DNA of 49,788 nucleotides from a virus (IMGVR_UViG_2718217868_000004:1-49788); one strand, 5' to 3'; shown: positions 3,414-30,781, counted from the stretch's first letter. Notes: generated by a model not told the origin, from the sequence alone. Made by a program: numbers and translations.

Positions 3414-3437
3414 TAAAAAAACCCCGCCGGAGCGAGG
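3414..3437 (-). terminator. Intrinsic terminator-like hairpin plus U-run on the minus strand, immediately upstream of the tail fiber RBS
   Basis: Minus-strand CCTCGC-tccg-GCGGGG stem followed by TTTTTTT; member of the GCCCCGC/GCGAGGC hairpin family seen four times in the window. Confidence 0.5.
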
Positions 3438-3458
3438 TTTATGTTTAAGCGTAGTGGG

Positions 3459-3692
3459 TTATTTGCAGGTTGTTTCGGTAAATGTATTCGCACTTACCCA
3501 GCGCCAGCTGAAAGGATATCCAGCCCGGTACTGCGTCTGGTTGTTTTGTTTACGCACACCGTAAATCTGAACCGTAGTTTCCTGACCGCCAACGATTGCA
3601 GTGCCGCTGCAAACTGGTTCCTGTTTCTCAATTACGCCAGCGCATCCTGTAAGCATGACAGCGCCTGCCATGCAGATAATCAGTTTTCTCAT
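3459..3692 (-). CDS. Small outer-membrane lipoprotein, possible Llp/Cor-type superinfection-exclusion factor
   Basis: 77-aa ORF with signal peptide and lipobox LTGC; mature part about 61 aa with two further Cys; located between the J-proximal genes and the side tail fiber; the function is inference from size and position. Confidence 0.6.
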   Translation of the reverse strand: MRKLIICMAGAVMLTGCAGVIEKQEPVCSGTAIVGGQETTVQIYGVRKQNNQTQYRAGYPFSWRWVSANTFTETTCK

Positions 3693-3759
3693 TTTGATAG
3701 TATCCAGAGGAATTCAGTATCTTAGACGATACCAATACAATTCTGGTGGGTATAATTGA

Positions 3760-3803
3760 TTGGATAGATCAATATTATGTTATTGATCGCTAAAAACGAT
3801 CAA
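3760..3803. promoter_or_regulatory. AT-rich promoter region with three clustered GATC sites and an 8-bp inverted repeat upstream of the lipoprotein gene
   Basis: GATC near 3767, 3785 and 3798; ATTGATCG-N7-CGATCAAT inverted repeat; minus-strand TTGATC / CATAAT promoter-like hexamers. Confidence 0.3.
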
Positions 3804-4478
3804 TCAATCATAGGCCGCTGTATTTATGGCGGTTAATGAAATGCCAGTATTCGTTCCCCCTCCAGGTGAACCTGCCCCAGTGGAGGTCCCCCCTGCGTTT
3901 ATCCTCGTATTGGCCCCGTCAAACCTGCATGAAGAATAAGCATTTATCGTGTAGATAGTCGGAGGCTGGGTTGAATTATTCACAATGATGGTCTGACCCA
4001 ACTGAGCAGGTGCAACGGCCCATGACCCGCTCAGCGTCTGGTCAATATTTATCCCGCCGTTTGCACCAGGCGTGCCAACCGTCTGCAGGTCTGATAGCAC
4101 ACGGGACTCATTAGTTAACACAAGCTTTCCGCTCGCATCCCATATTGCCAAACCCCATTTCGGTAATATCTGCGGGAATATGGCAAAAACGTACGCCGTT
4201 AAAGTGAAACTTTGGTTGTAGGGATTAACACCAGCAACATACACATTACCGCCGTTCCTGTAAGACATAACCGGAGTGGGCTGTGCTGTATTGGTGGTTT
4301 TGATAAAAACCATCACTGGGTAATCAGCGTTTAAAGCGATATTTTGAGCAACCTGCTGAGAACTGCCATTCGCGGATGAATTGAAGGTATACTTCCCGTA
4401 AAGACAGAAAGGCGTTGATTGTGGCGTTACAAAGGGATTCCCGTTATCCATTAATATCATCGCGCCAAATTCGGCCAT
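3804..4478 (-). CDS. Hypothetical tail-associated protein downstream of J
   Basis: 224-aa ORF, Gly/Thr/Asn-rich, abuts the next gene; position after J. Confidence 0.5.
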   Translation of the reverse strand: MAEFGAMILMDNGNPFVTPQSTPFCLYGKYTFNSSANGSSQQVAQNIALNADYPVMVFIKTTNTAQPTPVMSYRNGGNVYVAGVNPYNQSFTLTAYVFAIFPQILPKWGLAIWDASGKLVLTNESRVLSDLQTVGTPGANGGINIDQTLSGSWAVAPAQLGQTIIVNNSTQPPTIYTINAYSSCRFDGANTRINAGGTSTGAGSPGGGTNTGISLTAINTAAYD

Positions 4479-4780
4479 TATGCTTTCTCCATGAAAACGA
4501 CCACCTCACATTTAGAGGCCGGGTAATTACCCAGGCCCACAGAAGAGGCTGCGGTTACGGTTATTGTGTTCCCTGACGCGACAATGCTCCTCCCTACGCT
4601 GTTACCTCCTTCATCAAGTGAGAGCGCAAAACCGACCTTCATTCCTGAGGGTACAGTGAAAGACCAGCTGCCGGAGTTTTGTCCGGCGGCAAGTTGTATA
4701 CGTCCAACAACGGAAACGGGCTTGATTCCGTAGTTGTTGGGGTTTCCCGAAGCATCCCAGGTCTGTATTCCATAAGCCAT
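4478..4780 (-). CDS. Hypothetical tail-associated protein downstream of J
   Basis: 100-aa ORF immediately after the J stop; start overlaps the stop of the next gene. Confidence 0.5.
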   Translation of the reverse strand: MAYGIQTWDASGNPNNYGIKPVSVVGRIQLAAGQNSGSWSFTVPSGMKVGFALSLDEGGNSVGRSIVASGNTITVTAASSVGLGNYPASKCEVVVFMEKA

Positions 4781-4781
4781 A

Positions 4782-7700
4782 TCAGAACACCCCCGTTAAT
4801 CGGCCAACCTGCACTCTCAGAACGTTGTTGCCATCCTTGACGCTGATTGTCTGGTTGGTCTGCTTCATGGCTCCCTCCCCAGCTGTCGAACCGTAGTTCT
4901 CAAACGTCCCGGACTTATCCAGTTTCCAGCCAACAGAGCCGGCAACATAATTGTTCGACTGGATGTAATTGCCAATTTTTGCATTGCTTATGGTCCCGTC
5001 GCCAATGACTGTATCCCTGATAATGGCCTGGCCATTCTGGATAACGAACGGCAGTGTTACAGTCCCGCCGACCATAGTAGTCACGGCGAAACGGTCTGCC
5101 AGGAAGATTACCTGTGACTGCATGCCGGAGGGTGTATTTTGAACCCCAATACCCATCCCGGCAGCGTAATACTGCCCGTTACTGGACACCCCCACCTTGA
5201 TGTTATACATCGCGCTGAGGTTACCGTTTACATCTGCTATAGCCTGTGCGTTGACGTTTATCGCTGCACTGTTTTCGCCTGATTTAACAGTCAGAGTGTT
5301 GATTTTTGTTGCCGAAGCCTGGGTGAAATCAGCAAGAGTTTCTGTCAGGTCCGTTGAGTTAGAGATATTGCCACCAGCTTCTGCATCCAGTGTGACCAGC
5401 GCGCGTGCGACCGCCTGGCTGGTATCGGCAATCGTAGTATCCACTCTGTCTATACTGGCACTGTTCCCGGCGTTCGTGGCGGTCTGCGAGCGACGGCTTA
5501 CCACCTGCGCCAGCCCATTCTGAATAATCGCGATTGCCGAGTTCTTCACTCCTCCCGTCATGCCGTCCATCGACACAGAAATCTCGTCGATCTTCACTTC
5601 GGCCTGAGCCAGCCCGTCAGCGTTCTCCAGGATGTCTTTCGCCTGCTGCTCGAGTTCGTCGGCATGGTTTTTAATTTCGTCAGCCATGCCAGCAATTTTT
5701 TCGTTGCTGTCCACCGCGTTCTCGATCAGATCTTTGAACGTATCGGAGCCTTTCATGTCCTCCAGGATTGCATCGGTGATATCGGAAACATCGATGCTGG
5801 CCTGCCCGCGCACCCAGTCTGTCCAGTCGCTCTGATTCCCGATGCGGTCAACCAGCCGTGCCCGGTACCAGAATTCCTGCCCTGCCTTCAGCCCCATCTG
5901 CTGATAGAGTTTCTGAGGATACGGCACCGACGCCAAAAGCATTGGATTTGCCCCATCGACTGAAGCGCTGTATTGCAGTTCCGTGCTCAGGGTGTCGGCG
6001 GTATCTGCGGGGAAACCCCATGTAATGTTGATCCCAAATACAACATCCTCTGTTGCTGTTAGTCCGACAGGTTTGGGCACTTCACCGGTGCGGCCGGTAA
6101 GATGGGTCAACGCAGACGTGGCCCAAAGGCTGGACGCTCCCCCAGAGTTAATCGCACGGACGCGCACAAGGTAATCGCCCTCGAAAATGCCAGGCACTTC
6201 GATATTTCGTAACCCGGTTTCAGGCACGTTTACCCATTCGTTATTTCCGCGCTTCCACTGTGCCCGGTACGCTATTACGTCCGACTGCAGTTTGCCGTCT
6301 TTATCAATTGGCGCATCCCACGAGGCGGTTAGCGTGGCCACGCGTTGCCCCTGGCGAACCGCATCATAGCTCGATACCACGATGTTGGTCGGCTGGTTAA
6401 CTAGCCCGGTCGGAATCAGGCTTATCGGAGGAGTATCGAGGCGAGCGTTGTTATCAACGGCGTCGTATTTCGACGCGTTATACTCCGCACCGGTAATGGT
6501 GAAGGTGTTTTCCTCATCATCAAATTTTAGGTTCGTTACCCGGAAATACTGCAGGCGCAGCTGACCAGCATCAATGACGAATACGGCATTAGGTAATGGC
6601 GCCGCCGTGAACGGCGTGGACAGGATCAGCTGCGTGCCATTTACGGCCTGTATCACCCGGCTTTCAACGGTACCGCCCTGGGTGCGAATCATCAGCGTAT
6701 CGCCCGCCACCGCACTGGTGCCCCGGTCAATGGTCACGGCCTTAAGACCAGCGTTATACCCGGTGATACGCCCGCCGTAAACGCGCCCTGACAGGCGTTC
6801 ATCTGCAAACGCAAATACGGTGCCCGGCACGAATACAAAGCCATCAAGTCCAGTCTGAAGCGTGATAATGCGGTCAAGGGAGTTGGAATACACCGCCCAC
6901 CCGCCACGCCGCTGCGCCTCGCTCTCACGCGTACAACCGATCGCAGTGATTTGTGTCTGCTTAAACTTGAACTGCCTTACCAGTTCCGGAAACATCACTG
7001 CCGTGGTGCGGTCCTGGTAGTGGTTATCCGGATCGCTGAAGTTAATCAGCGCGCTGGAGAATCGGTTTTTCTCACTGCCACTCGAGTACACCGGCTTACC
7101 CACCACTGATGCGCGAGTGAGGATCTGCAACTTCGTAGTGTCCGCCGGCATGTCAGAGACAACATTGAACATGTTGTTGCCCCAGAAAGTCATTCCGTTG
7201 AAGCCCGCGGCAATATCTTTAATCACCTGCCAGGCATCAGCCTGGGACTGGATGTAAACGTCAAACATGAAGCGTGGCTCGGTACCGCTTCCGCCTTTCC
7301 CGTCGGGTACCTTCTGGTCGCAGCGCTGGGCGATGCGATAGAGCTCCCACTTATCGAGCATTTCTGGCGTCACGCGGCGCCCAAGGCCGAAGCGCGGCTC
7401 AGTCAGAACATCGAACCAAATCCACGCCGGGTTATTCGTCCAGCCCCATTTAAACGTCCCGTCCCATGTTCCGCTATAAGTCCGCGCTATTGGATCATAG
7501 TTCGAAGGGATTCGGATGATGCGCCCCTTCGGCATGCAGGAAATCTTAGGGATGTTGTTGAATGACTTTGCGTTAAAGGACACGTACAGCAGCGCTGTGT
7601 GTGGATATCGCAGGCGAGCATCGATCACTTCAGTAATCGCTTGCACCTGCGTTTTGTTCTGCAGCATCTGGCTGGTGCTGTCATCGGTGTCACGCACCAC

Positions 7701-8261: not shown

Positions 8262-8315
8262 ATTACATCCATAAAAAAAGCACCCAATTGGGTGCTTGAT
8301 ATTCAGAAAGGAGTT

Positions 8316-8909: not shown

Positions 8910-9628
8910 GGCTGAATCTCCTGCGGTAGCTCTTTGTGACGGACGCAGATCATCGTCCTGTCTTTGAAATAACCGCGCGCATACGGCGTGATGCAGGATG
9001 GCTGCCCGTACAGATGGTGAAGCAGTTCACCTTCCTCGGTAATGATCCCCGCGTGGTTCCACTTACTGGATTCAACCTGCATGATGACCATACAGCCTGG
9101 CGACGGGTCGCATTCGACAAACCCTTCCCGCTCCCAGTTGTCGAAATACAGGTTGTCCGGGTACTGGCTTTCCCACCATGGGTAATCGACGCGGAAATCG
9201 TTAAGCTTCACGCCTTGGGTGGCATGCCAATCCATTACCAGTCCCCAGCAGTCATTTGAGCCCAGGATAAACGGACGCCCGATAAGGGGTACCGCCTCCG
9301 GCATTATCTCAGCGTATTCGTCGCTATCCGGCGCGTAAATACCCCAGACCACGCCGGAGTTGTTGCATTGCTGGCGATCCAGATCGGATGGAATCGGCCT
9401 TGCTCCATCGCCAGGATGGGAATGGATGACGCGCACAATCGTCCCGATATCTTCGGCGTTCGCCCAATGCTCGCCATCGATGCGGAAATGCTCTGTTGGA
9501 TTTTCGTGAGTGTTTGGTACAGGAATATAGCGCTGGCGACGGCCAGACTGAATAACGAATCCGCAGCTCTCGCGCGGGGATTCATCCAGTGCATGCGCCC
9601 GGATAGCTGCCATTATGGTTTTATTCAT
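8897..9628 (-). CDS. Tail assembly protein K (JAB/MPN plus NlpC/P60 domains)
   Basis: HSHPGDG metalloprotease-like motif and NlpC/P60-like Cys region (SNDCWGLV); lambda K position. Confidence 0.85.
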   Translation of the reverse strand: MNKTIMAAIRAHALDESPRESCGFVIQSGRRQRYIPVPNTHENPTEHFRIDGEHWANAEDIGTIVRVIHSHPGDGARPIPSDLDRQQCNNSGVVWGIYAPDSDEYAEIMPEAVPLIGRPFILGSNDCWGLVMDWHATQGVKLNDFRVDYPWWESQYPDNLYFDNWEREGFVECDPSPGCMVIMQVESSKWNHAGIITEEGELLHHLYGQPSCITPYARGYFKDRTMICVRHKELPQEIQPWRV

Positions 9629-9640
9629 TGGTACGTCCGG

Positions 9641-10411
9641 TTATCTGGAAAAAAGCACGGTGGCTGGATAGCCCCCAAAATCAAGGGTCGCGGTATTAGG
9701 CTCTGCCAGCCCGGCACCAAACCGCTTACGGCAGTCACTCAGGCAGCCGCCGCACACATCCAGCGCCGGGTCAGCGACAGGATTACCCTTCGCATCAAAA
9801 TACGCCGTGCCGTTGTAGGTGCATCCATCGCCGCTCCGGTACTGCCCGCGTAGCGCCCATTCGCAGAGCGAGGTGATTTGTCTGGTTGGGATAACAAGCC
9901 CCTGCAAGTCTGCGGGGCTACTGAGTGACCAGGTAACTACCTCGTCGTCTTCGGAGGTTTTGGTGTCAAGCCAGAAGGTCTGAAGTGTGAACATTGACGA
10001 ATCAGCTGTAGGGTTTGCGCCACCAGGGTAATTCACAGCATCGAGATAGACCGCATAGGTATCGATAATGCTCACCCTGGCGTTAACCATGTCCTTAAAT
10101 TGGAGGCACAGCGCCGTGATATGACCGTCGAGGTTTGAGACGCTGAGAGACGGCTCCGCCGCCTGGTCTGTTGAAAGCTCCAGGCCTGCTACCTGAAACG
10201 GCCAAAAATCGTAGGTATTGCCACCGAATACGATTGGCTTTGGTCCGAGCTTTTCTTCATCACCATTGGCAGCGTCGATCTCTTCCGGTGTATGGGGGAA
10301 AGGTGCGTAGTGGAAACGGTGAATACCGCCACTGAACTCTGAGGCGTCAACTTCAACCAGGCGTACTCTGCCACCCGGTGCCAGCATCGCCGCCTGATCG
10401 ACTAATGCCAT
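9641..10411 (-). CDS. Minor tail protein L
   Basis: 256 aa, lambda L position with C-terminal Cys cluster. Confidence 0.8.
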   Translation of the reverse strand: MALVDQAAMLAPGGRVRLVEVDASEFSGGIHRFHYAPFPHTPEEIDAANGDEEKLGPKPIVFGGNTYDFWPFQVAGLELSTDQAAEPSLSVSNLDGHITALCLQFKDMVNARVSIIDTYAVYLDAVNYPGGANPTADSSMFTLQTFWLDTKTSEDDEVVTWSLSSPADLQGLVIPTRQITSLCEWALRGQYRSGDGCTYNGTAYFDAKGNPVADPALDVCGGCLSDCRKRFGAGLAEPNTATLDFGGYPATVLFSR

Positions 10412-10761: not shown

Positions 10762-10924
10762 ATTTGCTCCATAAAAAAAGCCACCCGAAGGTGGCTACTG
10801 TCTGAATATCAGGATGTTACAAATCAAAATACCTGGTTATGTTGTGGATTCAGCCCGCCAGTGGTGGGCACTGGCGCATTAATTGCCGACGGTGCGGCTG
10901 ATGGCCTCGGTATAACAGGAGTTT

Positions 10925-11155
10925 ATGATGAGCTTTAACAAAGAAGACCAGCAGGATGAAGCCTTAGCGTTTTTATTAGCTGTTGCCACTGTCGAATCAG
11001 GTGATGCTGGAGCTTTTCGCAAGCGCGTTACTGAGTATATGACGAAGGCCTACGGTGGAGATACATCAAAAATGACGATGCAAGAGCAAGGTCGTGCCGA
11101 GGCGGTATCCAAATTGTACGCCAGGGCTGATAACATCTACCATCGCATCAAATAA
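10925..11155 (+). CDS. Hypothetical small protein on the opposite strand inside the tail operon, followed by its own terminator
   Basis: 76-aa ORF; strong plus-strand hairpin CCCCGG-ttaag-CCGGGG plus TTTT right after the stop. Confidence 0.5.
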   Translation: MMSFNKEDQQDEALAFLLAVATVESGDAGAFRKRVTEYMTKAYGGDTSKMTMQEQGRAEAVSKLYARADNIYHRIK

Positions 11156-11161
11156 TGCTTT

Positions 11162-11182
11162 GCCCCGGTTAAGCCGGGGTTT
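11162..11182 (+). terminator. Rho-independent terminator for the 10925-11155 gene
   Basis: Perfect 6-bp GC stem followed by a T-run. Confidence 0.55.
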
Positions 11183-11426
11183 TCAATCCGGCAATTGCCT
11201 TACTGGCATATTCTTTGGCGCGTGCTTCGACTTCGGCAAAAGAGCTGCCTGGATTGAAATCCTCCTGATAGATAAACACCAGTTCATGAGGCGCATTGAT
11301 TTGCTCCAGCTTGCAAACTGTAATTTTGGTTCTGACAGTCTTTATCATTTTAATTTCTAAATCGGGATCGAAGCTTACAGATTCAAATCGCGAACCCATT
11401 TCAGGGAATCCTACAGTCATTTCCAT
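11169..11426 (-). CDS. Hypothetical protein (cassette between tape measure and M)
   Basis: 85-aa ORF with AGGAGAA RBS 5 nt upstream of the ATG. Confidence 0.5.
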   Translation of the reverse strand: MEMTVGFPEMGSRFESVSFDPDLEIKMIKTVRTKITVCKLEQINAPHELVFIYQEDFNPGSSFAEVEARAKEYASKAIAGLKTPA

Positions 11427-11456
11427 AACGTTCTCCTGCCTCTCGGCTACAGATAT

Positions 11457-11480
11457 AAAAAAGCCCCGCGTATGCGAGGC
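11457..11480 (-). terminator. Intrinsic terminator, GCCCCGC-N4-GCGAGGC family
   Basis: Minus-strand stem GCCUCGC/GCGGGGC with one G-U pair followed by a U-run; near-identical copies near 28887 and 30758. Confidence 0.5.
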
Positions 11481-11529
11481 TTAATATTGGTTGAAAGCAT
11501 GGGAGGGAAGGTCATCAAACCATTTTGGT

Positions 11530-11979: not shown

Positions 11980-11989
11980 CTCTATGATA

Positions 11990-14900
11990 TTACTTTTTCA
12001 CAAAGCGGCCACCAATCGCTCCATCATCTCTGATTGCTCTGACGATGCCTTCTTGGACATACTGCTTCACACGATCAGCCAGCGCGCGAGCAGCCGCGTC
12101 ACCACCACCGCTGGTATTTGCAGTCGCGTTACCTTTGTTATCGACATAAATATCAACGTTGATTTGATGTCCGGAACCACCAGCGCCTTGGGCACGCACA
12201 CCCAACCGCCCTGCTGAATCTTTAGCTAACGGCATAATAGCTTCCGGCCCTGCCTCTCCAAAGACGCCGCCCTTGGCAAACTTAGAGGCCCCCTGGAAGG
12301 AGAAGTATTGCGGGGAATCATAGACACCGTTCACATACTGGTGAAGGCCCGCTGATTCGTAGACACCACCCTTAGCATTCCTGACTGGCCCGACGAAATC
12401 TGGACTGCCGATACCGCCACCTTGAGGATTTGAAGAGCCACTTATCCACCCCATTGCCGCCTGCACCGCATAGGCCACCATGAGGCGGTTCGTCACATCA
12501 AGGATCATCTTGAGCATGGATTTGCCAAACTCTTTAACCGACGCAGTGCCGGTTGTCATGAGTTCGGTTAGCATGTCGGACAATCCTGTCAAAGTGGAGC
12601 TGGCAACGTTCTTAACGGCGTCGTATGTATTGGTAGCAGCGTCGAGATATTCATTCCAGCCACTTACCGCACCTGCTTTCCAGTCGCCCCGTAATTTGTC
12701 CTCTTCGGCATAATATTTCCTGAGAGCCGCCAGTTCTTTTTTATAACCGGCATCGTCAAGCTTACCGCCACCGTTGAGCCAGCCCTGGCGAAGCTGCGCC
12801 TCTTCCATCATGCGCTGCGTTTGCCGACTGCTGAGACCTGCACTATCACGCAATGCATCGGTTTTTTCCGACATCTGCGTGACGTATTTATTCGCCTGCT
12901 GCGCCAGGCCGTTAATCTTCTGCTGCGCCTCTACTTCCTTGTTCTTCTGATCCACCACCTTGGCGGCGTTCAGAATGGCCTCACGGCTCGACAGTAGAGA
13001 TTTCTCCTGGGCGGTCAGCGCGCGTGTTTTGGCAGCCTCATCCAATTCAGCAAAGCGAGATTGCTGTTTGCTGAATTCGGTATATCTGACCTGAGTCTCC
13101 CCAGTCTTGCGCAACGTTTCGAGTGTTTCAGTTAACGTTCTGGCCTGGGCGCGGTAGTTCTCAAGAGTGCGATCGCCAGCATCCAGCGTGGCTTTTGCCT
13201 CTTTGGTCTTTTTGGCTGAGTCTTGTGCAAGCTTCGAGACTGCGTCTCTTGATTCTCGACTTGTTCCTCCATCACCTTTTACGTTAGACCCTCGCGCTTC
13301 AGCCTCATAGTTTGCCTGTGCGTTAGGCGCAGTGACGCGCTTCCAAAGCTCGTTATAGCGTTTTTTGTTCGCCTCAATCTCTTTGTCCGCCTCCGCTCCA
13401 GCCTTTTTCATTGCCTCAACGTCCATGCCGAGGAAATTAGCCAGCGCACCGCCACCCGGGATTTTGTCTGCCCAGCCAGCGATGGTGCTGGTGAACTTGG
13501 CGTCCAGAGAGGTGATATTGAGGAACAAGTCTTTGATCGAGGATTTAACCAGTTCGAAAATATCAATGATCTGGTTTCCCCATGCGCGCACGGTAATACC
13601 TATATCGCCAAAGGTGTCAGAAGCGCTCTTTTTAAGGTTTTCCCACGTTTGACCGATATTATCGGTCGCTTTGTTGGTCTCCTCTGCGCGCTTTGCCATG
13701 ACGCCTGCAAACAGCTCAATAGCTTCGGTAACAGCCGCCTGCTCACCCTTCTGCTTACGTAGCTGGATAATGTGCTTGATCATGGCTTCATCAACGAAAC
13801 CATATTGTTCATTGAGGCTGGCAAGCCCTTTAACCGGATCGCTGACAATCTTTCCGAAGTCGCTTATTGCCGCTTTGGTATCATTTCCGGCCTTACCCAT
13901 GAGGGTGATGGTCGTTGCGACCTGCTTCATCTGGCTTGCGGTATATTTGCCAGTATCATTCAACGTAACCAGCGTATCGACGGTGGAGCTAATCGATGTA
14001 TTCGTCTTGCCAGCCACTTCCTCAGCGGCCTGGTTGAGCTGCTGCATTGAGGAGAAGCCAGCCCCACCCATCATGATGACAGAGCGTGCCACCTGCTCAA
14101 ATTGCTCCGAGGAGTTATACGCTGCGGCAGCCAGCAGGCCGATCGTGCCAATCAGCCCACCAAGTGCGATTGTGGTAGGGTTAATCATCCCAGCCATGCT
14201 GCGGATGTATTCGCCGACGCCGGACAGCGCCCCCTGAACCGAGCCGAACTGGTCTTTAATCTGCCCGCCCTGTTGCAGCAGAATCAGGAACGGCGACTGA
14301 CCGCCAGCCAGCTGCGTGGCGATATCGGTGAATTGCGCCGGAAGCGTGCGCATTGCTGCGCTGTACTGACCAACGGAGATTCCAGCGCGCCGGGCAGCAG
14401 CTTCCTGCCGGGATAGCGCCTCTGGTAGTACGTCAGCGACACCAGAGAGGCGCTCACGCGTCTGGTTAAGGATTGTGTTGAAGTGCTCGAACTGAGCACC
14501 GTTAATGCGCCCAGCTTCGAAATGTGCCACCAGCTGTGCGTGCTGTTCATCCAACGAATTGAACGCGCGGATAGTCGGGTCGATGGATCCAAGAAGGTTC
14601 TTTAACGCTGCGGACTGCTTCTCTGCCGCCTGGGTAGCGGCTAATTCGGCCTGAGCACGCGCCGCGGCTTCTCCGGTGTCGGTCAGCTTGAGGCGGGTGT
14701 CATCCAGGATTTTGTTGTATGCCTGAAAGGTATCGGTATCCAGGAAACCTTTGGCCTGGAATTTCCGCAGCGATTCTTGCTGCTCATCCAGGCGGTTTAA
14801 GGCCTTGGTAACCGGGTCGATATTCTCCAGCAGCCCTTTGAGCGCGTTCTGCTGCTCCTTGAGTCCTTCGCTGCCTTGCTTCGCAGATTCAGCGCCAGCG

Positions 14901-15037
14901 CGAAACACGCTATTCAGATCATCTGCTTTATCTACAGCACCGGCCGCCGCCTGGCCGAGTTTATCCAGTTCGTTGCTGGCTGTTTTCAGGTCAGAAACAT
15001 CGGCCCGCAAAGTAATCGAGGCGATCTGGTCTGTCAT
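11990..15037 (-). CDS. Tail tape measure protein
   Basis: 1015 aa, Ala/Gln/Lys-rich coiled-coil-like sequence with Gly-rich C-terminus; follows the G/GT chaperones. Confidence 0.9.
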   Translation of the reverse strand: MTDQIASITLRADVSDLKTASNELDKLGQAAAGAVDKADDLNSVFRAGAESAKQGSEGLKEQQNALKGLLENIDPVTKALNRLDEQQESLRKFQAKGFLDTDTFQAYNKILDDTRLKLTDTGEAAARAQAELAATQAAEKQSAALKNLLGSIDPTIRAFNSLDEQHAQLVAHFEAGRINGAQFEHFNTILNQTRERLSGVADVLPEALSRQEAAARRAGISVGQYSAAMRTLPAQFTDIATQLAGGQSPFLILLQQGGQIKDQFGSVQGALSGVGEYIRSMAGMINPTTIALGGLIGTIGLLAAAAYNSSEQFEQVARSVIMMGGAGFSSMQQLNQAAEEVAGKTNTSISSTVDTLVTLNDTGKYTASQMKQVATTITLMGKAGNDTKAAISDFGKIVSDPVKGLASLNEQYGFVDEAMIKHIIQLRKQKGEQAAVTEAIELFAGVMAKRAEETNKATDNIGQTWENLKKSASDTFGDIGITVRAWGNQIIDIFELVKSSIKDLFLNITSLDAKFTSTIAGWADKIPGGGALANFLGMDVEAMKKAGAEADKEIEANKKRYNELWKRVTAPNAQANYEAEARGSNVKGDGGTSRESRDAVSKLAQDSAKKTKEAKATLDAGDRTLENYRAQARTLTETLETLRKTGETQVRYTEFSKQQSRFAELDEAAKTRALTAQEKSLLSSREAILNAAKVVDQKNKEVEAQQKINGLAQQANKYVTQMSEKTDALRDSAGLSSRQTQRMMEEAQLRQGWLNGGGKLDDAGYKKELAALRKYYAEEDKLRGDWKAGAVSGWNEYLDAATNTYDAVKNVASSTLTGLSDMLTELMTTGTASVKEFGKSMLKMILDVTNRLMVAYAVQAAMGWISGSSNPQGGGIGSPDFVGPVRNAKGGVYESAGLHQYVNGVYDSPQYFSFQGASKFAKGGVFGEAGPEAIMPLAKDSAGRLGVRAQGAGGSGHQINVDIYVDNKGNATANTSGGGDAAARALADRVKQYVQEGIVRAIRDDGAIGGRFVKK

Positions 15038-15324
15038 TATTTCGTCTCCTTATGCATTACCTTGAGAGCCTCGCTTTCCATAATTTGAAGGTCAGCCATG
15101 CAGGCCGCCGCATCCTCAACCCCGTGTAACTCGAACATCCAGGGGAGAACGTTGTAATCAAGGCCGGTCGCCCCGCTCGCGCCGACTCGCCACTGGGTCG
15201 CCAGGGAAGAGAAGATGGTGAAGGACCTCCACACCGAGGGCAGGATCCCCACCTCTTCCTCCACGTCCTCAGGCGTCAAACCAAAAGCGCTCAGCTCCGC
15301 GAGCGTCGGTCCCGGCGTATACAA
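15037..15324 (-). CDS. Tail assembly chaperone frameshift extension (T-like part of a G-T fusion)
   Basis: ORF is in the -1 frame relative to G and stays open across the A-AAA-AAC heptamer at the end of G. Confidence 0.65.
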   Translation of the reverse strand: MYTPGPTLAELSAFGLTPEDVEEEVGILPSVWRSFTIFSSLATQWRVGASGATGLDYNVLPWMFELHGVEDAAACMADLQIMESEALKVMHKETK

Positions 15325-15680: not shown

Positions 15681-15745
15681 TTCGGTTCCTTAGAAAAGAA
15701 AAACCCGCCGTAGCGGGTTGAATATTCGAGTGCGTGATGGGGGTG

Positions 15746-16612: not shown

Positions 16613-16733
16613 GATTTATTTCCTTTTAGGCGTGAGCCTGTCGCACGGCAATGCCGCCGAAAGTTAACGGTTTGCCCAGGCTCACAGCTGAAAGACTTTC
16701 TTCGATGTGCGCGTGCGATGCGCAGATGTGTTA

Positions 16734-17069
16734 TTACCAGGAAGCTTCGTATGCGATGTTCGTCAGCTCATCTGACAGTTCGCTGATGGAGTAAGCGATA
16801 GCCATCTTCTGTTCCCTGCTGAACGACGGCCAAAGTTGACGCAAAGATTCAGTGAGTTGATGTTGCCAGTGTCCATCACCGCTTAGATCTTCCCATCCAT
16901 CAGGCAGGAGACAGAGCCCACGACCGTAAAGCTCCTCTTCCGGGGTAAGGGGCGGCCGAGCGGCTGCCGTATTTACTGGGCCATCACCCCAATTGCCGAT
17001 AACTATTTTCCCGCCACCAGCCATATTGACTGTCATCCCAACCTCACTGATCTCAATTGTTCCGCTCAT
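16734..17069 (-). CDS. Hypothetical protein between major tail gene and G
   Basis: 111-aa ORF; GGAG RBS; preceded by hairpin GCCCGG-ctta-CCGGGC plus T-run. Confidence 0.5.
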   Translation of the reverse strand: MSGTIEISEVGMTVNMAGGGKIVIGNWGDGPVNTAAARPPLTPEEELYGRGLCLLPDGWEDLSGDGHWQHQLTESLRQLWPSFSREQKMAIAYSISELSDELTNIAYEASW

Positions 17070-17111
17070 GGGTTACTCCAAAAAAAAGCCCGGCTTACCG
17101 GGCCTGATTGG

Positions 17112-18044: not shown

Positions 18045-18090
18045 AGCACTCTCCTGAAAAAAGATAATAAAAAACCCACCAGGTGGCGGG

Positions 18091-18507
18091 TCAGTAATCA
18101 GATCGGTACTGCATGCTGACTGGATGCGTAATATCGATATCACTCTGTATTGGCTGGCGTACCTGCGGCGGGCCATTGATGTAAACCGCCAGGTCTCCAT
18201 CCACCAGCGGGAGCCCCTCGGGGAAAGCATCGGCAATGGATTTGGCAAGCCCTCTGGCCTGGGTTACGCCGCTACCCGCAGGTGCAATGATATTGAGCTG
18301 GAGAATGCCCTGGTATGTACACAACTGACCTTCCAGGTCCTGCCCCACGGTTTGCGCTGGTAAGACATAAACGCGCCCATAAGGGGCATCATCAGGCGGG
18401 GTAAAAGCGATGTTAGGCCAGGCGATCGGCAATCCGAGCGACTCAGCGATAATCGCCACCCGGCTCTCCAGCAATTCAGCAATTCGCATGGACTGGTCAC
18501 CGGCCAT
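18091..18507 (-). CDS. Tail terminator / tail completion protein (assignment by position)
   Basis: 138-aa ORF immediately upstream of the major tail gene. Confidence 0.45.
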   Translation of the reverse strand: MAGDQSMRIAELLESRVAIIAESLGLPIAWPNIAFTPPDDAPYGRVYVLPAQTVGQDLEGQLCTYQGILQLNIIAPAGSGVTQARGLAKSIADAFPEGLPLVDGDLAVYINGPPQVRQPIQSDIDITHPVSMQYRSDY

Positions 18508-19096: not shown

Positions 19097-19098
19097 AG

Positions 19099-19452
19099 TT
19101 ACGCCCTCAGTTGGATGTTGTAGGAAATCAGCACATCGGCAGGCTTAACCGGATTCGGCTGCACCACGCGCCATTTTTTGCCGTCGATTTCGATGCGGTC
19201 ATCGATGCGCACTTCCGTCTCGAAAGTGGCCGCCAGCTTCTTGTCGCCGGTGGCGATCAGGGAACCGTCGATTTCGCGGGAGGAGTATTCGGTGATAACA
19301 CCGGTTACGGTCGCGGTAATGGCCGGGGTGGTGACCTCTTTGCCGAACTGGTCACGGATGGTGCCGCCGCCGCGGGTAAGCTGATATGCCTTCCCGTTCT
19401 CGGTCAGCAGTCGGGTCACGGTCGCGCGCATGCGGCGGTAGTCGATTGGCAT
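19099..19452 (-). CDS. Head closure / head-tail adaptor protein (assignment by position)
   Basis: 117-aa ORF in the connector block between capsid and tail genes. Confidence 0.4.
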   Translation of the reverse strand: MPIDYRRMRATVTRLLTENGKAYQLTRGGGTIRDQFGKEVTTPAITATVTGVITEYSSREIDGSLIATGDKKLAATFETEVRIDDRIEIDGKKWRVVQPNPVKPADVLISYNIQLRA

Positions 19453-19453
19453 G

Positions 19454-19936: not shown

Positions 19937-19938
19937 GT

Positions 19939-20172: not shown

Positions 20173-20210
20173 TGGGCCTCCTGAAAAACAAAGGGGCCGA
20201 AGCCCCTGGG

Positions 20211-21350: not shown

Positions 21351-21367
21351 TTATGGCTCCTTTCGAT

Positions 21368-22159: not shown

Positions 22160-22226
22160 CCGACCCGGTCACCGCGTCGCATCCGCTCAGCGGCAGGCAT
22201 AAAAAAGGCCACCCGGAGGAAGCCTG

Positions 22227-22454
22227 TTAGATAAATTCGACGGTTACTACGCCGCGCAGTTTGCGGGAATAGACCTCATCCCGCTTGCGCTTGTGGACCC
22301 GGAGTGGATATGGATAGAAGCATGCGATTCCTCGCTTAACATCCGCCCATATGCAGCGTTTGACCTCGTTGCCGTTAACGAACACTCGGCGCTTACCGCG
22401 GCCATCGCCCACATGGTGAAAATCGTCATCTCGCATAGACCACCCCCCAAGCAA
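22227..22454 (-). CDS. Small basic hypothetical protein (probable start near 22436)
   Basis: About 69 aa, Arg/Lys-rich; an overlapping alternative-frame ORF looks less protein-like. Confidence 0.3.
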   Translation of the reverse strand: MLGGWSMRDDDFHHVGDGRGKRRVFVNGNEVKRCIWADVKRGIACFYPYPLRVHKRKRDEVYSRKLRGVVTVEFI

Positions 22455-22459
22455 CTGGT

Positions 22460-22924
22460 TTAGAGAATTTGCCAGTCATCAGCCAAGACGTCGGTTTGGC
22501 TTGGTGCCCAAGGCACGCGAGCGCCATTTGGGTATGGCATAGCACCATTGCCCGGCACCGGATAAATTAAACGAATGTACGGCAGGTCCACAGATGGCGA
22601 CTGCTGGACCAGCTCAAGCCACAGGCCCTTGCCGTTCCAGCCTGCGCGGGTGACACGCTTGCCTGATTTCAGGGCTTCGACAGCCAGTCCGAAGCTAAGC
22701 CCCGCCACTGGTCGGTAGGCTTTGTCGAACACATCTTTCGGACTCCAGCTCACATACCCGTTGAAGCGATCGGTATTTGGCTTTCCGCCATCCAGATACT
22801 CGACGAGATAACCTTCATCACTTCCGTTTTCGTCACTTGGTAACTCCCAACCACGAAAGTCGTTATATGCCAGACGGGTCATCGGGTAAGCATTGATGAG
22901 CTTCACGCCAATATGTTGAGTCAT
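22460..22924 (-). CDS. DUF2829-like phage protein
   Basis: C-terminal half (ALKSGKRVTRAGWNGKG...VPWAPSQTDVLADDWQIL) matches the remembered DUF2829 pattern. Confidence 0.45.
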   Translation of the reverse strand: MTQHIGVKLINAYPMTRLAYNDFRGWELPSDENGSDEGYLVEYLDGGKPNTDRFNGYVSWSPKDVFDKAYRPVAGLSFGLAVEALKSGKRVTRAGWNGKGLWLELVQQSPSVDLPYIRLIYPVPGNGAMPYPNGARVPWAPSQTDVLADDWQIL

Positions 22925-22944
22925 TGTTTTATTACCTTATTCAG

Positions 22945-24048
22945 TTATTCAAAAGCCGATGCATCCACGCGGCGCAGTTCGTCCAGGGTCAGGAACTCCC
23001 CGGCATCGTTGAACATCTCCGGCACGGTGATTTTGCCGTCCCGAAGCATCATGGCGCGGGTAACGCCCAGCACCTGCTCCTGCCGCGCGTATGGCTGCCG
23101 GGTGAGCCAATCGGCGTAGCTGGTATGCGCTGGTACTTGGCCGTCCATTGAGGCGCGTGTGGCGCTACTCAGCTCGCCTGACGCTATCTGCAATTCTTCC
23201 CACGACTTCGTGAGCAGGATTTCGCAGGACCTGCATAGAAAATGGATTTTTCCCGGCCCGCGTAGGTAGGGAATTTCATGCCCCAGCGGCTTGCCATCGA
23301 GCGTATAGAGTTTGCGGTCGCGGATGATGCACCACTGGCTGGTATGCGTATCCAGGGTTGAGGACCACTGTTTGGCCTTCACGATATCGCTATTTGCCTG
23401 GGCGAATTCCTGACGCGCCGTGGCGGCCATGTGATTCACCGCGGTGCGGGTCACCACCGCCAGGTCGCGACGGGATGTGTTGATCACCCCGTCCTCGCGA
23501 TTTCTCTGCGGCGTACCCGCTACGCGCCGGACAATCTGCTCTACCGTTTCGCCCTGGAGGAAACCGGAGCGTACAGCGTTGGTGATTTTGTCCAGCCGAT
23601 CCAATTCAAGCTTCTGACTCCACTCTTTCAGCAACCGCCCCTGAAAGGGCTGCGCCACTGCTGAGGCGTAAACCTGTTCTGCCGCAATGCTCTGGAGCGG
23701 CACATGCTTGAGGATCTGTTTAGGGATGATGCTGCTGAACAGGTCCAGCTGATACCCGGTCTCATATTCAACGTAGCGCGTCAGTTCGCGCGTCAGCGCA
23801 GCATTAACCGGTTCATAGGCCTGCTGATTCAGGTCGCGCACGCCAGCCAGCAGCGATGCCAGACGACGGGCGCTATAGGTATCAGCGCGCTTTCCGTCCA
23901 GCAGCACCAGCAGTTTTGCGGCCAGGTCAGCATCCATCCTATTCAGCAACGCGACCATGCGCCGGGCGACGCCGGTGCCGTAGCGCGTCACATAAAGGCC
24001 ATGCGCTATGGTCTCGTCCTGCAGGCGGTCATTGACGGTGCGTGCCAT
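22945..24048 (-). CDS. Head morphogenesis / minor capsid protein (SPP1 gp7, Mu F-like)
   Basis: 367 aa directly downstream of portal; characteristic position and composition. Confidence 0.75.
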   Translation of the reverse strand: MARTVNDRLQDETIAHGLYVTRYGTGVARRMVALLNRMDADLAAKLLVLLDGKRADTYSARRLASLLAGVRDLNQQAYEPVNAALTRELTRYVEYETGYQLDLFSSIIPKQILKHVPLQSIAAEQVYASAVAQPFQGRLLKEWSQKLELDRLDKITNAVRSGFLQGETVEQIVRRVAGTPQRNREDGVINTSRRDLAVVTRTAVNHMAATARQEFAQANSDIVKAKQWSSTLDTHTSQWCIIRDRKLYTLDGKPLGHEIPYLRGPGKIHFLCRSCEILLTKSWEELQIASGELSSATRASMDGQVPAHTSYADWLTRQPYARQEQVLGVTRAMMLRDGKITVPEMFNDAGEFLTLDELRRVDASAFE

Positions 24049-24049
24049 A

Positions 24050-25453: not shown

Positions 25454-25457
25454 GGGT

Positions 25458-27514: not shown

Positions 27515-27545
27515 CGCTTACCGCCTGTCATAATCAGTCAAAAAT

Positions 27546-28184: not shown

Positions 28185-28187
28185 GAG

Positions 28188-28574
28188 TTAATCCTGTTTT
28201 ATATACGGCAAAAATGCCGAAAACATTCTGTCGAGCAGATAGCAGTAGGTTTCGTTTGCGTCTTCCGGCTTGGTCGTTACGCCCACATCAGAGCAGACGT
28301 AAAAACATACGTGAGCGCATTCGTGAACGAGAGTTGATATCTGCTGATCGAATACTCCAATCAGGTAAACTCGCTCTCCCGTATCGGTGTTTTCATAGTT
28401 GTTTGCCAGTCCACAGTTGAATGGCCTTTCCTCTCCGCTACCACCAAGGAATTTATCAGCGTGCTGAAACTGTTCTCTGGTTGTTGCGAGGTAGACATGC
28501 GCACTTTGAAACAGCGGAATGGTGAATGCCGGAAGTCTGTGCCATTTGGCTTTTGCCATCTGTTGCTCCGTCAT
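28188..28574 (-). CDS. Zincin-like protein with HExxH motif (putative metallopeptidase)
   Basis: TLVHECAHV motif in the same hydrophobic-LV-HExxH context as the neighbour. Confidence 0.5.
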   Translation of the reverse strand: MTEQQMAKAKWHRLPAFTIPLFQSAHVYLATTREQFQHADKFLGGSGEERPFNCGLANNYENTDTGERVYLIGVFDQQISTLVHECAHVCFYVCSDVGVTTKPEDANETYCYLLDRMFSAFLPYIKQD

Positions 28575-28658
28575 TATCCGTTGCAGGGGTTATTTTTGAT
28601 TTATCCGCTCAGGGGGATATCCATTATCAAGCCCACCAGCAGGTGAGCTTTGGAATGG

Positions 28659-28859
28659 CTACTGGCGGTCATTATGCTCGTAACGAGATACCGTCTTCCC
28701 GTTCTGGTTCATCACGTAGGCGACCTCGCCAGGTTTCAGGAATACATTTTTGTCCATTCCCGATACCGCGATGCTCTGCTGCCCCGGATTGAACCCTACA
28801 CTCAACCCGCAATGAATCTCTTCGCCGCCACCAGGCGACATTACTTTTACTGTTAACAT
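28659..28859 (-). CDS. Hypothetical small protein
   Basis: 66-aa ORF with AGGAGAAG RBS, just downstream of a terminator. Confidence 0.45.
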   Translation of the reverse strand: MLTVKVMSPGGGEEIHCGLSVGFNPGQQSIAVSGMDKNVFLKPGEVAYVMNQNGKTVSRYEHNDRQ

Positions 28860-28886
28860 ACTTCTTCTCCTGCTTCTTCTGGTCGT

Positions 28887-28910
28887 AAAAAAGCCCCGCT
28901 AATGCGAGGC
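28887..28910 (-). terminator. Intrinsic terminator, GCCCCGC-N4-GCGAGGC family
   Basis: Same stem sequence as the copies near 11457 and 30758, with a U-run on the minus strand. Confidence 0.5.
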
Positions 28911-28938
28911 TAGCTTTCTTTCTGCTTCGGTAACGCCA

Positions 28939-29103
28939 TCAGGCATCGCTTGCAAGCTCAACCAAATCTTTGAAGTCCTGGCACATATCCAGTCGATGAC
29001 CATGATCATCGACAAAGTTATAACTTTTGAATAGCTCTACGATTTCCTCGGGACTCTTCCCATTCAAACGAGGAAACTGCTTTGATTCGTCAACCTGTTT
29101 CAT
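28939..29103 (-). CDS. Hypothetical small protein (track ORF extends to 29199)
   Basis: Internal ATG with GGAGA RBS; overlaps the start of the plus-strand KTSC gene only slightly. Confidence 0.35.
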   Translation of the reverse strand: MKQVDESKQFPRLNGKSPEEIVELFKSYNFVDDHGHRLDMCQDFKDLVELASDA

Positions 29104-29297
29104 CTTCAAATCTCCAATCAGTAGGTTATGACCAGGCCACTTCGACGCTGGAAATTGCATTCCATAGCAGTGGCATTTATCAATACTCTCGGGTTCCATC
29201 TACCGTGTACACGGCACTAATGAATGCGTCGTCAAAAGGCCAGTATTTTGATGCCCACATCAAAAAAGCTGGCTACCCTTATCGCAAAGTTGGCTAA
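29082..29297 (+). CDS. KTSC domain-containing protein
   Basis: 71 aa; VSSSNLQSVGYD...LEIAFHSSGIYQYSRVP matches the remembered KTSC domain pattern; opposite strand to the late operon. Confidence 0.55.
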   Translation: MIRQPVSSSNLQSVGYDQATSTLEIAFHSSGIYQYSRVPSTVYTALMNASSKGQYFDAHIKKAGYPYRKVG

Positions 29298-29300
29298 CAG

Positions 29301-29867
29301 CTAGCGGGGATTCGTCCCCGCTTTTTGCCAGATCCCGTTATTTGACTCTCTCACCGAGTCGTAAACGCGCTCACACGTCATTCCTGCCCGGTAGCGTTCG
29401 TCAGCGATTCCAGCATATCGTTTAGCTTCTGCTGCAATATCTCCGAGCATGTCGGCAAGCAATCCTGCGTTGGTGTCGGTTGTTTTGCTTCGGACGGTAG
29501 CGGCAAGATCTGCGGTGTGCTTTGCGGCATCCAGGTGGATGGCAAGTTTTGTTGCTTCGGTGCGCAGCTGGCTAACAGTGGCAGACAGACCAGCAGCATT
29601 CGCAGCTGCTTTTGCAGCCTGTTCTTGTGCATTTTTAACAGCCTCATCGCGAGCAATTACACGCCCTTGTTCAATCATACGGGCAACCGTTTGAGCGTTC
29701 TCTGCCTGAGAGGACTCCTCACTATTACGATCTGCCCATTTCTTTTCCCATGCTCGTTCCGTCCACACACTACCTGCGGCGAATGAGGCAATGAGAAGCG
29801 CTGAAACCGTGGCGGCTTTCCACCAGGTCTTAACAGACTCGCTGATCATTGGTCTAACCCCCAGCAC
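29301..29867 (-). CDS. Rz-like i-spanin
   Basis: 188 aa with N-terminal TM and Ala/Gln-rich coiled-coil; overlaps the endolysin stop; contains an embedded lipoprotein ORF. Confidence 0.75.
29378..29632 (-). CDS. Rz1-like o-spanin embedded in Rz in another frame
   Basis: Embedded ORF with signal peptide, lipobox LLASC and Pro-rich mature region. Confidence 0.6.
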
Positions 29868-30394
29868 GCCAGCGCGCTTTCCTGGTCCCGTCGCTCAACC
29901 TGACCATAGCAGCCATTCTTCTGGCCTTTGGTTAGACGGCAATCACGGCCACCGTCTTTAATCCACCAGCGGATTGCCTCGCATGCACCGATGCGGTCAC
30001 CTGCGTTGATGCGCTTATAGAAGGTCGATGGGAAGCATTTACCGGGGCCGATGTTATACGGGCAGAAGGATGCAATACCCACCTTCTGTGGTTCGGTCAG
30101 TGGTACTTTGATATTTCGGTCAACCCACGCCAGCGCCTTGTCGCGTTCAATGGCGTTTACCTGGGCGCATTTCTCAGCTGACAGCTTCATGCCCTGTACT
30201 ACTGGCTTGCCATCAACCATTGTTGCACCACGGCAAATGGTCCAGAGTCCGCCGCCGTCGCGATATGCTGTCAAGCTGTTACCCTCTTTCTCATCCAGAA
30301 ACTGATCGAGAATCACGGGTGCGGAAGCCCCGGCAAGAATCAAACCAACGACCGCTGCGCTCAATTTATTCTTCAGCTTTAGAGACATAGCCAT
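29846..30394 (-). CDS. SAR endolysin (T4 lysozyme-like, GH24)
   Basis: N-terminal signal-anchor-release helix followed by E-8aa-D-5aa-T catalytic motif ([16 protein letters not shown]). Confidence 0.85.
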
Positions 30395-30644
30395 TGCGCC
30401 GATCCTCCCGTTCTTTCCAGCGGAAATACCAGTTCACTGCACAGGTGATTACCGTGCATGCGATACCGACAATAATTGCCCAGTCGCTCAGGCTTAACCC
30501 TGCAATTCTGTCGGCCAACATCCAGGACACCTCTTTTGCTGTTTTTGCTGTTTCGGCATATGCCTTCGCTGATACACCGCAGCCGGTCAGCGTGGTGCCT
30601 GTTCCATATGAAAGTCTGCTGTAAATGGTGCTCATTCTGGTCAT
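30366..30644 (-). CDS. Holin (likely pinholin partner of the SAR endolysin)
   Basis: Small membrane protein with TM segments immediately upstream of and overlapping the endolysin. Confidence 0.65.
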   Translation of the reverse strand: MTRMSTIYSRLSYGTGTTLTGCGVSAKAYAETAKTAKEVSWMLADRIAGLSLSDWAIIVGIACTVITCAVNWYFRWKEREDRRNGYVSKAEE

Positions 30645-30757
30645 AGCCTCACCTCCGATTCTTCGGATGGCGCTGTGTGTGTATGAAAAGGGTCAGGCTT
30701 CACGGGCTGGATTTATCAACAAAGCACGTAGCGGATGATTCCCGTGAGGCCTGAAAT

Positions 30758-30781
30758 AGAAAAGCCCCGCATAAGCGAGGC
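30758..30781 (-). terminator. tR'-like terminator between Q and the lysis genes
   Basis: GCCCCGC-ataa-GCGAGGC hairpin plus U-run on the minus strand, roughly 370 nt downstream of the Q stop. Confidence 0.55.

Follow-up and report, generated by a model that had tools for sequence, protein, structure and literature searches.

The stretch of viral DNA analyzed here (IMGVR_UViG_2718217868_000004:1-49788; 49,788 nucleotides, referred to as the window) is an HK639-like lambdoid prophage of Escherichia coli H6, with a late operon that runs on the minus strand from the antiterminator gene Q to the tail fibres. Twelve hairpins accompanied by U-runs were found on the sense strand of this operon, and these are very likely Rho-independent terminators that punctuate it, bound its moron genes, and are expected to be read through under Q. 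Over its first 25 kb the window matches a chromosomal prophage of strain H6 at 100% identity, and across the head, tail, and terminase region its identity to the lambdoid phage HK639 is 82-90%. The gene map was taken from the RefSeq annotation of the corresponding E. coli H6 locus, and base-level comparisons were made with HK639 (NC_016158), HK97, the prophages VREC0761, CX15, and EC09, and loci from IMG/VR; VREC0761, CX15, and EC09 are sister prophages that share the trp-tonB-yciI site. The hairpins, lettered A to L, are listed in Table 1 with two plus-strand terminators and the principal late genes, among which the portal gene lies between terminase and capsid on the minus strand.

Hairpins of the Late Operon and Expected Read-Through under Q

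The stems comprise 6-11 pairs, 5-8 of them G-C pairs, and close loops of 4-6 nt, with folding energies of -13 to -25 kcal/mol. All twelve carry at least four consecutive U directly after the stem or overlapping its end, the run being short or interrupted in hairpins H (UUUGUUUUU), J (UUUUCUAUUU), and K (UUUUGCGUUU). Every one of them lies in sense orientation in a gap between genes; intergenic DNA makes up 7% of the late region, yet it holds all the hairpins, with at least one in 11 of the 17 gaps of 20 nt or more. The two plus-strand hairpins follow plus-strand genes, and the only strong terminators on that strand are those behind the two reverse-oriented genes. A preliminary description of the window had read nine hairpins as intrinsic terminators, and this is borne out by their sense orientation and intergenic position and by the fact that no sequence feature of an intrinsic terminator is missing from them. 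Four of them (A, D, I, and J, here family 1) had been placed at 3414, 11457, 28887, and 30758, which are the low-coordinate ends including the U-run and are correct to ~6 nt. Read on the plus strand, their pattern GCCCCGC-N4-GCGAGGC has exact matches at 11463-11480, 28893-28910, and 30764-30781; the match at 3421-3438 contains two mismatches. In the minus-strand RNA the family stem is GCCUCGC-N4-GCGGGGC, with a U.G wobble and then a U-run; fewer than 0.8 matches to the pattern are expected even allowing two mismatches, and none of 100 shuffles reached the observed count. The five others (B, C, E, F, and H) were recovered on the minus strand by the terminator scan (Table 1) as clean stem-loops of -13 to -18 kcal/mol, with z-scores of -2.6 to -4.0 except for hairpin H, and all nine lie on the sense strand within ~6 nt of where they had been located. 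Hairpins G, K, and L, together with the plus-strand terminators at 11163-11179 and 29304-29321, were absent from that description. The recurrent arrangement of hairpin, U-run, ribosome-binding site (RBS), and ATG that it pointed out is also seen, the stem ending 16-34 nt from the next start codon in nine of the twelve cases, and this is the look of a terminator squeezed into a compact operon.

Under strict criteria (7 or more contiguous pairs, 5 or more of the G-C type, and a U-run) applied to the 29-kb region 2055-31148, nine sense-strand sites were counted; 300 dinucleotide shuffles averaged 0.08 sites and gave at most 2. An alternative in which the hairpins are inverted repeats that arose by chance and lack any function draws some support from permissive scans, which returned only 33 sites against 21.5 expected and 28 against 20.4; the probability of this explanation is nevertheless practically nil, being refuted by the strict count and by conservation in relatives with pair-preserving changes, besides the confinement of all hairpins to the sense strand and to intergenic DNA. 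The stems persist in four relatives while nearby sequence diverges. In hairpin G, pairing is kept by wobble changes (CCCGCC/GGUGGG in the window, CCCGCC/GGCGGG in HK639 and VREC0761, CCUGCC/GGCGGG in EC09 and CX15). Hairpins H and F retain their stems across the four relatives, with changes only in the loop or in stem length; hairpin E is identical in HK639, and hairpin B is identical in HK639 and three prophages.

Several of these sites carry curated annotation in related phages. In HK639, features labelled 'terminator' are found at the equivalents of hairpins L (4901-4922), G (9019-9040), F (10003-10029), E (10850-10873), and B (19137-19160), and also at the site of hairpin C before gene M (16631-16655), where the stem is a different one; four more are annotated between Q and the holin gene, and another after the lysis genes has the family-1 stem GCCUCGC-AAUA-GCGGGGC. 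The post-capsid hairpin is present in the HK639 sequence and unannotated. Hairpin C is annotated in HK97 as the putative terminator of the gp22 moron, and a feature of HK225 annotated 'rho-independent terminator' is identical in sequence to hairpin K. Together, HK639, HK97, and HK225 carry terminator annotation at eight of the twelve sites, and the arrangement was already known; a literature search on HK639 and terminators returned nothing relevant in the literature covered.

The upstream end of the operon resembles the PR'-tR'-Q region of lambda, in which the Q gene is followed by a promoter and then by a strong intrinsic terminator. Here the Q gene ends 25 nt before the -35 element of a promoter that aligns with lambda PR' with its elements in register: UUUACU at 31123-31118 (-35) and UAAUUU at 31101-31096 (-10), followed by AACGAUGGGUUAAU. 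The alignment with lambda PR' covers the 85 nt from the Q stop codon to hairpin K, and lambda and HK225 have the same initially transcribed CAACGATGGGTTAAT; by its role in lambda, this region would serve as the pause or qut element. The start, placed by alignment near 31089, leaves hairpin K ~25-60 nt downstream. The presence of a Q gene, a lambda-like PR' with AACGAUGGGUUAAU, and an immediate strong terminator makes read-through under Q the expected mechanism. As in lambda, one long late operon carries the lysis, head, and tail genes. However, lambda tR' lies roughly 190 nt past the aligned start, farther than hairpin K, and unlike in lambda a second terminator, hairpin J, and a 200-nt conserved non-coding island precede the holin gene, while Q here belongs to Pfam PF03589. 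This operon also has many more internal terminators than are known for lambda.

Lambda biology and the curated annotation in relatives suggest how the hairpins would act. In a lysogen without Q, polymerase from PR' would stop at hairpin K after ~55 nt, with hairpin J as a back-up, and the internal terminators would end the transcripts of independently expressed morons and block stray transcription into the late genes. After induction, Q would load onto polymerase paused at the lambda-like PR' pause site, and the Q-loaded polymerase, if terminator-resistant as in lambda, would yield one transcript through all twelve sites.

Table 1. Candidate terminators and principal features of the late region of the window (narrower coordinates of some hairpins in brackets).
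Feature	Coordinates	Strand	Description
Late antiterminator gene Q	31964-31149	minus	271 aa; Pfam PF03589 'Antitermination protein Q', E 2.8e-48; RefSeq 'antitermination protein'
PR'-like late promoter and initially transcribed region	31075-31123	minus	Alignment to lambda PR'
Hairpin K	31029-31064 (31064-31037)	minus	11-bp stem, -24.8 kcal/mol, the strongest; candidate tR' equivalent, first late terminator
Hairpin J	30755-30782	minus	Family 1, GCCUCGC-UUAU-GCGGGGC and U-run; second candidate terminator between Q and holin, 5' edge of lysis module
Holin, lysozyme, Rz	30644-29301	minus	
Plus-strand terminator	29304-29329 (29304-29321)	plus	GCGGGGA-TTCG-TCCCCGC-TTTTT; directly 3' of reverse KTSC-domain gene (29082-29297)
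Hairpin I	28884-28911	minus	Family 1, GCCUCGC-AUUA-GCGGGGC and U6; between 54-aa and 66-aa open reading frames, downstream of lysis genes
Terminase	27514-25458	minus	
DUF2829 and 69-aa block	22214-22948	minus	Lacking in HK639; ended by hairpin L
Hairpin L	22201-22224 (22224-22207)	minus	GGCUUCC-UCCG-GGUGGCC-U6; 2 nt past unannotated 69-aa open reading frame
Major capsid gene	21350-20211	minus	
Hairpin H	20183-20207 (20207-20192)	minus	3 nt past major capsid stop
Hairpin G	18065-18092 (18092-18073)	minus	Overlaps stop of tail-terminator gene, immediately 5' of tail tube gene; z-score -4.0
Tail tube gene	18044-17112	minus	
Hairpin F	17078-17105 (17105-17086)	minus	6 nt past tail tube stop
111-aa gene insertion	16725-17080	minus	356 nt; exactly after U-run of hairpin F; without its own terminator
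Hairpin E	15694-15719 (15719-15702)	minus	3' of 288-aa tail-tip-fibre-like accessory gene, 21 nt before tail chaperone gene G
Tape measure gene	15037-11990	minus	
Hairpin D	11453-11482	minus	Family 1, GCCUCGC-AUAC-GCGGGGC and U6; after AT-rich 128-aa gene
Inserted moron cassette	10783-11456	minus	gp22-like gene, reverse gp23-like gene with its plus-strand terminator, hairpin C
Plus-strand terminator	11163-11179	plus	Directly 3' of reverse gp23-like gene
Hairpin C	10771-10796 (10796-10779)	minus	GCCACC-UUCG-GGUGGC-U7; 3' end of HK97-type cassette, 17 nt before start of gene M
Genes M/L/K/I/J	10761-4782	minus	
Hairpin B	8270-8297 (8297-8278)	minus	GCACCC-AAUU-GGGUGC-U7-AUGGA-N4-AUAUG; between genes I and J
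cor exclusion gene	3692-3459	minus	
Hairpin A	3411-3440	minus	Family-1 variant, ACCUCGC-UCCG-GCGGGGU-U7; candidate terminator after cor (3459-3692)
Tail fibre gene	3398-2055	minus	

Accessory Genes and Their Junctions

PMC3594210, which cites Juhala et al. 2000, describes morons as units that were acquired horizontally and bring a promoter and a terminator with them. In the late operon, module-edge hairpins end the accessory genes cor (A), gp22/23 (C), the 128-aa gene (D), the 288-aa gene (E), and DUF2829 with the 69-aa gene (L), and hairpins I and J sit at variable junctions around the lysis module. The preliminary description held that the family-1 copies mark the edges of inserted accessory genes; several hairpins do bound genes that vary among relatives, but this holds for only some of them, and hairpins C, E, and L, which are outside the family, behave likewise. 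Presence or absence with intact flanks was found for the gp22/23 cassette, the 111-aa gene, the cor block upstream of 3398, and the DUF2829 and 69-aa block. Hairpins without associated inserts (here core hairpins) are H after the capsid gene, G and F, which bracket the tail tube gene, and B between genes I and J.

The gp22/23 cassette is ~90% identical to positions 14452-15145 of HK97, annotated there as 'moron product', 'reverse moron product', and 'terminator', and it sits between the tape-measure region and gene M in the window versus between genes I and J in HK97. It is absent from CX15, EC09, and the IMG/VR locus L087, in which hairpin D, with the same AUAC loop, is joined directly to the U7-AUGGAG-N5-AUG of gene M; the window has this arrangement plus an insert that starts after the U-run of hairpin D and ends with hairpin C and its U-run. 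In VREC0761, hairpin D follows a different upstream gene. Three different stems are found at the same start of gene M (GCCACC/GGUGGC in the window, GCCUCGC/GCGGGGC in CX15, and GCCCGCC/GGCGGGU in HK639), with identical U-run, RBS, and ATG behind all three, and the breakpoints of six loci at hairpin C fall at 10782-10794. The GC content of the cassette is 0.43-0.46, compared with 0.55 in core genes.

Similar junctions were observed elsewhere. The 111-aa insertion is absent from HK639, CX15, and EC09, where the U-run of hairpin F abuts a 106-nt leader, and the breakpoints lie within that U-run (17079-17081). Hairpin A and cor, a textbook moron gene, are absent from CX15, EC09, and HK639, with homology resuming at the ATG of the fibre gene (3398). 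Homology with HK639 starts at 22213, inside hairpin L. At hairpin I, VREC0761, CX15, and EC09 carry a different stem, GCCUGAC-UUCG-GUCGGGC, and their homology picks up again within the 3' arm, at 28896; at hairpin J, homology with HK225, Gifsy-2, and Klebsiella phages begins or stops at 30760-30777, and at hairpin K breakpoints occur at 31022 and 31067. In HK639 the corresponding slots hold other accessory genes, encoding a lipoprotein, a YafO toxin, and a Rha-like protein. The 69-aa open reading frame (ORF) ended by hairpin L (22227-22436, minus strand; MRDDDFHHVGDG...) is unannotated in the H6 RefSeq record, and its VREC0761 equivalent is an annotated 69-aa gene (WP_071839685.1).

The accessory genes have a GC content of 0.49 versus 0.55 for the core genes (Mann-Whitney P=1e-5), and the clear inserts range from 0.42 to 0.49; this AT-richness fits the published moron definition. 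The 111-aa gene (0.53) and DUF2829 (0.54) do not differ from the core. Hairpins A, C, D, E, and L and both plus-strand terminators provide accessory genes with a terminator of their own, the exception being the 111-aa insert, and sigma-70-like promoter sites precede only the 128-aa gene (11975-11947) and cor (3803-3774). Pfam searches with eight small accessory proteins found no domains except a tail-tip domain in the 288-aa protein. These inserts are comparable to the morons of HK97 and HK022 as AT-rich, terminator-ended extra genes between conserved late genes that vary among relatives, although some of them lack their own promoter (the gp22-like gene) or terminator (the 111-aa gene).

The position of these junctions raises a further explanation, compatible with the termination role, in which the hairpin and U-run are recombination joints and a shared GCGGGGCUUUUUU or U7-AUGGAG lets phage recombinases swap cassettes, which would make the terminators 'linkers' in lambdoid mosaicism. 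Junctions lie inside U-runs or 3' arms at hairpins C, D, F, I, and L, the start of gene M carries exchangeable stems before an identical sequence, the prophage encodes RecE and RecT, and 11 of 82 breakpoint clusters fall within 10 nt of a hairpin, where 2% would be expected (P=7e-7). However, breakpoint clusters are intergenic in 27 of 82 cases versus 8% expected, and hairpins occupy 24% of intergenic positions; once the null is restricted to intergenic DNA, a weak enrichment remains (11 of 27 versus 24% expected, P=0.04), and the pattern is largely explained by selection that keeps only junctions between genes. Further junctions fall at start codons (3398) or within genes, and many of the sampled IMG/VR loci were chosen for the family-1 stem, which biases the counts at hairpins D, I, and J. 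Since the enrichment falls to P=0.04 on the intergenic-only null, a role as crossover sites was kept as a rival and not as a conclusion; it is possible but not probable.

Several observations weigh against terminators that bound morons under Q control. Hairpin H is weak (z-score -1.4, interrupted U-run), and hairpins F, G, H, and L start no more than 6 nt from a stop codon, where a terminating ribosome may hinder their folding and make termination on translated mRNA poor; these four may be partly masked by ribosomes and serve rather as attenuators or 3' stabilisers. Promoter-like sites show no enrichment (14 versus 15.8 in shuffles), with only two accessory genes having a well-placed site, the gp22-like gene has only 34 nt upstream and no room for a promoter, and the 111-aa insert lacks a terminator; not every insert is a textbook moron. 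The action of Q (PF03589) at a lambda-type qut site is assumed for this phage by analogy. The hairpins, especially H, G, and F, could instead be mainly 3'-end stabilisers or processing barriers that set mRNA levels, an explanation that is rather unlikely as the principal one but compatible with termination. The two genes flanked by hairpins H, G, and F are exactly those with the products required in the most copies, the three hairpins are conserved in four relatives with no associated gene insertion, and their closeness to the upstream stop codon disfavours termination on translated mRNA and not 3'-end protection. However, they have full U-runs, which a pure stability hairpin would not need, and the HK639 curators annotated terminators. 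Termination remains the very likely role of the twelve hairpins, and the core hairpins probably also tune transcript abundance or stability.

Origin of the Family-1 Stem

The 14-nt stem is the same in hairpins D, I, and J, down to the U.G wobble, and hairpin A has its 12-nt core. The preliminary description took this repetition as duplication of a small terminator cassette, and the four hairpins could accordingly be paralogous copies of one cassette duplicated or transposed in the phage, or a mobile hairpin resembling repetitive extragenic palindromic (REP) sequences or miniature inverted-repeat transposable elements (MITEs). Such an origin would be in line with the count, as 3-4 of 12 hairpins exceeds a background of ~5% (own estimate, P about 0.002-0.02). 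A further 255 terminator-like hairpins from the fetched phage DNA served as background, a sample biased toward phages that carry the stem, in which CCUCGC/GCGGGG was the commonest core and about threefold more frequent than either perfectly paired form, a further point in favour (20 occurrences, ~12 distinct, versus 6 for CCCCGC/GCGGGG and 3 for CCUCGC/GCGAGG).

However, the similarity ends at the 7-bp stem and the U-run: comparison of the four copies revealed no relatedness in either flank or in the loops (AUAC, AUUA, and UUAU in the exact copies, UCCG in variant A), and neither target-site duplications nor terminal repeats were present. Each exact copy also has its own positional counterparts in other phages, with the same hairpin and loop as D in CX15 and EC09 (before gene M) and in VREC0761, copies related to I before the same 66-aa gene in IMG/VR loci, and J recurring in the loci L045 and L037. 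In collection scans, whose occurrence figures are lower bounds, GCCTCGC-N4-GCGGGGCTTTT was found in at least 120 viral contigs, the matches listed showing 37 loop variants and many gene contexts, P2-like tail genes included. The same 18 specified bases were found in at least 120 bacterial contigs, with 59 loop variants among the matches listed. The bacterial contigs with the stem and U-run belong to Bacilli, Bacteroidota, Fibrobacter, Actinomycetes, Vibrio, Shewanella, Rhizobium, and others, and the occurrence of the exact stem and U-run with 59 loops across unrelated phyla indicates that it arises convergently. A repeat family by descent was considered and rejected, there being no similarity beyond the functional core and no restriction to one lineage or gene pool. 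Family 1 is like REP sequences, bacterial interspersed mosaic elements, and MITE-like elements in being a short GC-rich hairpin that recurs in intergenic DNA; unlike them, it consists of single hairpins with a U-run, lacks terminal repeats and target duplications, and is spread across phyla. Paralogy or mobility is very unlikely on these grounds. Judged from its distribution in sequence collections, the family-1 stem is a popular, convergently recurring terminator sequence in the phage gene pool and in bacteria generally, and the excess that its 3-4 copies represent among the twelve hairpins is modest, with exchange inside the lambdoid gene pool as the best explanation. The interpretation offered earlier is partly supported, being right on the terminators, the accessory-gene edges, and Q, and wrong on duplication.

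In addition, the sequence after the stem of hairpin D (11448-11460, UUUUUUAUAUCUG) is identical to that after the stem of lambda tR' (GGGAUUUUUUAUAUCUG; positions 335-347 of the lambda locus L133), and many family-1 hairpins in IMG/VR loci are followed by it as well. Either a common post-terminator motif or mere coincidence may account for this.

Conserved Non-Coding Islands and Annotation of the Prophage

Two conserved non-coding stretches were observed beside the hairpins. The first is a 106-nt block (16724-16613, minus strand) that separates the 111-aa gene from the 288-aa tail-tip-fibre-like gene and is 97% identical in HK639 (10029-10135), CX15, EC09, and several IMG/VR loci, where the flanking genes are 75-90% identical. 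The fetched loci contain 27 copies, almost always directly after a terminator U-run; in the window, the 111-aa gene is inserted between the U-run of hairpin F and the block. The block ends at UAAAAGGAAA and the AUG of many different accessory genes. Among 14 distinct aligned copies, 95.6% of cells are paired, compared with 34-52% in slid controls, with eight compensatory pairs, so that covariation favours a structure, and one predicted helix would pair a conserved CUUUC with the Shine-Dalgarno sequence. Rfam at the gathering threshold gave no match over the whole window, permissive Rfam scans around hairpins K/J and F gave chance-level hits only (E at least 0.3), and a search for a sigma-70 promoter inside the leader found none. 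Of 5,426 E. coli genomes, 125 carry the block, DH10B/DH5alpha and Nissle 1917 among them, and it is unannotated there; the diverse bacterial loci carrying the family-1 stem among the matches listed lack it. It may be an undescribed cis-regulatory RNA leader. A more speculative and unlikely proposal is that accessory genes of enterobacterial phages are captured into Q-antiterminated operons as portable units docking at the terminator U-run as the crossover point, with the leader of ~106-125 nt and the terminator forming a reusable 'socket' that insulates them and controls their translation.

The second is a conserved stretch of ~200 nt between hairpins K and J (31020-30800, minus strand), 78-87% identical in mEp213, Stx2c phages, Hafnia and Providencia phages, and the Klebsiella phage RothC. 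It lies just upstream of gene N in mEp213 and just after Q in RothC, and begins with a Shine-Dalgarno sequence and a mini-ORF of 1-3 codons. Single-base indels between copies argue against coding. A 133-aa plus-strand ORF in this segment (30735-31136) was rejected, as its homologues carry single-base indels and it would span both terminators; to judge from these sequences, this ORF and the antisense coding sequences (CDSs) annotated in HK225 and RothC are probably spurious.

Other features of the prophage were also noted. The tape-measure gene (11990-15037, minus strand) is a single intact ORF of 1015 aa, represented in RefSeq by a 597-aa CDS and a 'partial, pseudogene' fragment, a split that is probably an annotation artefact. 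At positions 1-2051 of the window, a recombinase-family (invertase-like) gene adjoins convergent genes with tail-fibre domains, and in the sister prophage VREC0761 (locus L125) the segments 621-2051 and 2041-2928 occur in swapped order with >99% identity, which suggests, at the level of sequence, an invertible host-range segment. The VREC0761 prophage also carries ISSen4, an IS3-family insertion sequence (L125 18320-19440, corresponding to ~8251 of the window), at the 5' end of gene J, downstream of hairpin B, and its gene J is truncated.

The analysis re-derives the textbook lambdoid late operon from raw sequence, with Q, PR', tR', internal terminators, and morons, and in this respect adds little that is new. 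Its practical value is annotation: the RefSeq record of the prophage contains none of these terminators, misses the 69-aa gene, and leaves the two conserved non-coding islands blank. The base-resolution junctions provide a clean illustration of cassette docking in late operons, with inserts that begin and end in U-runs.

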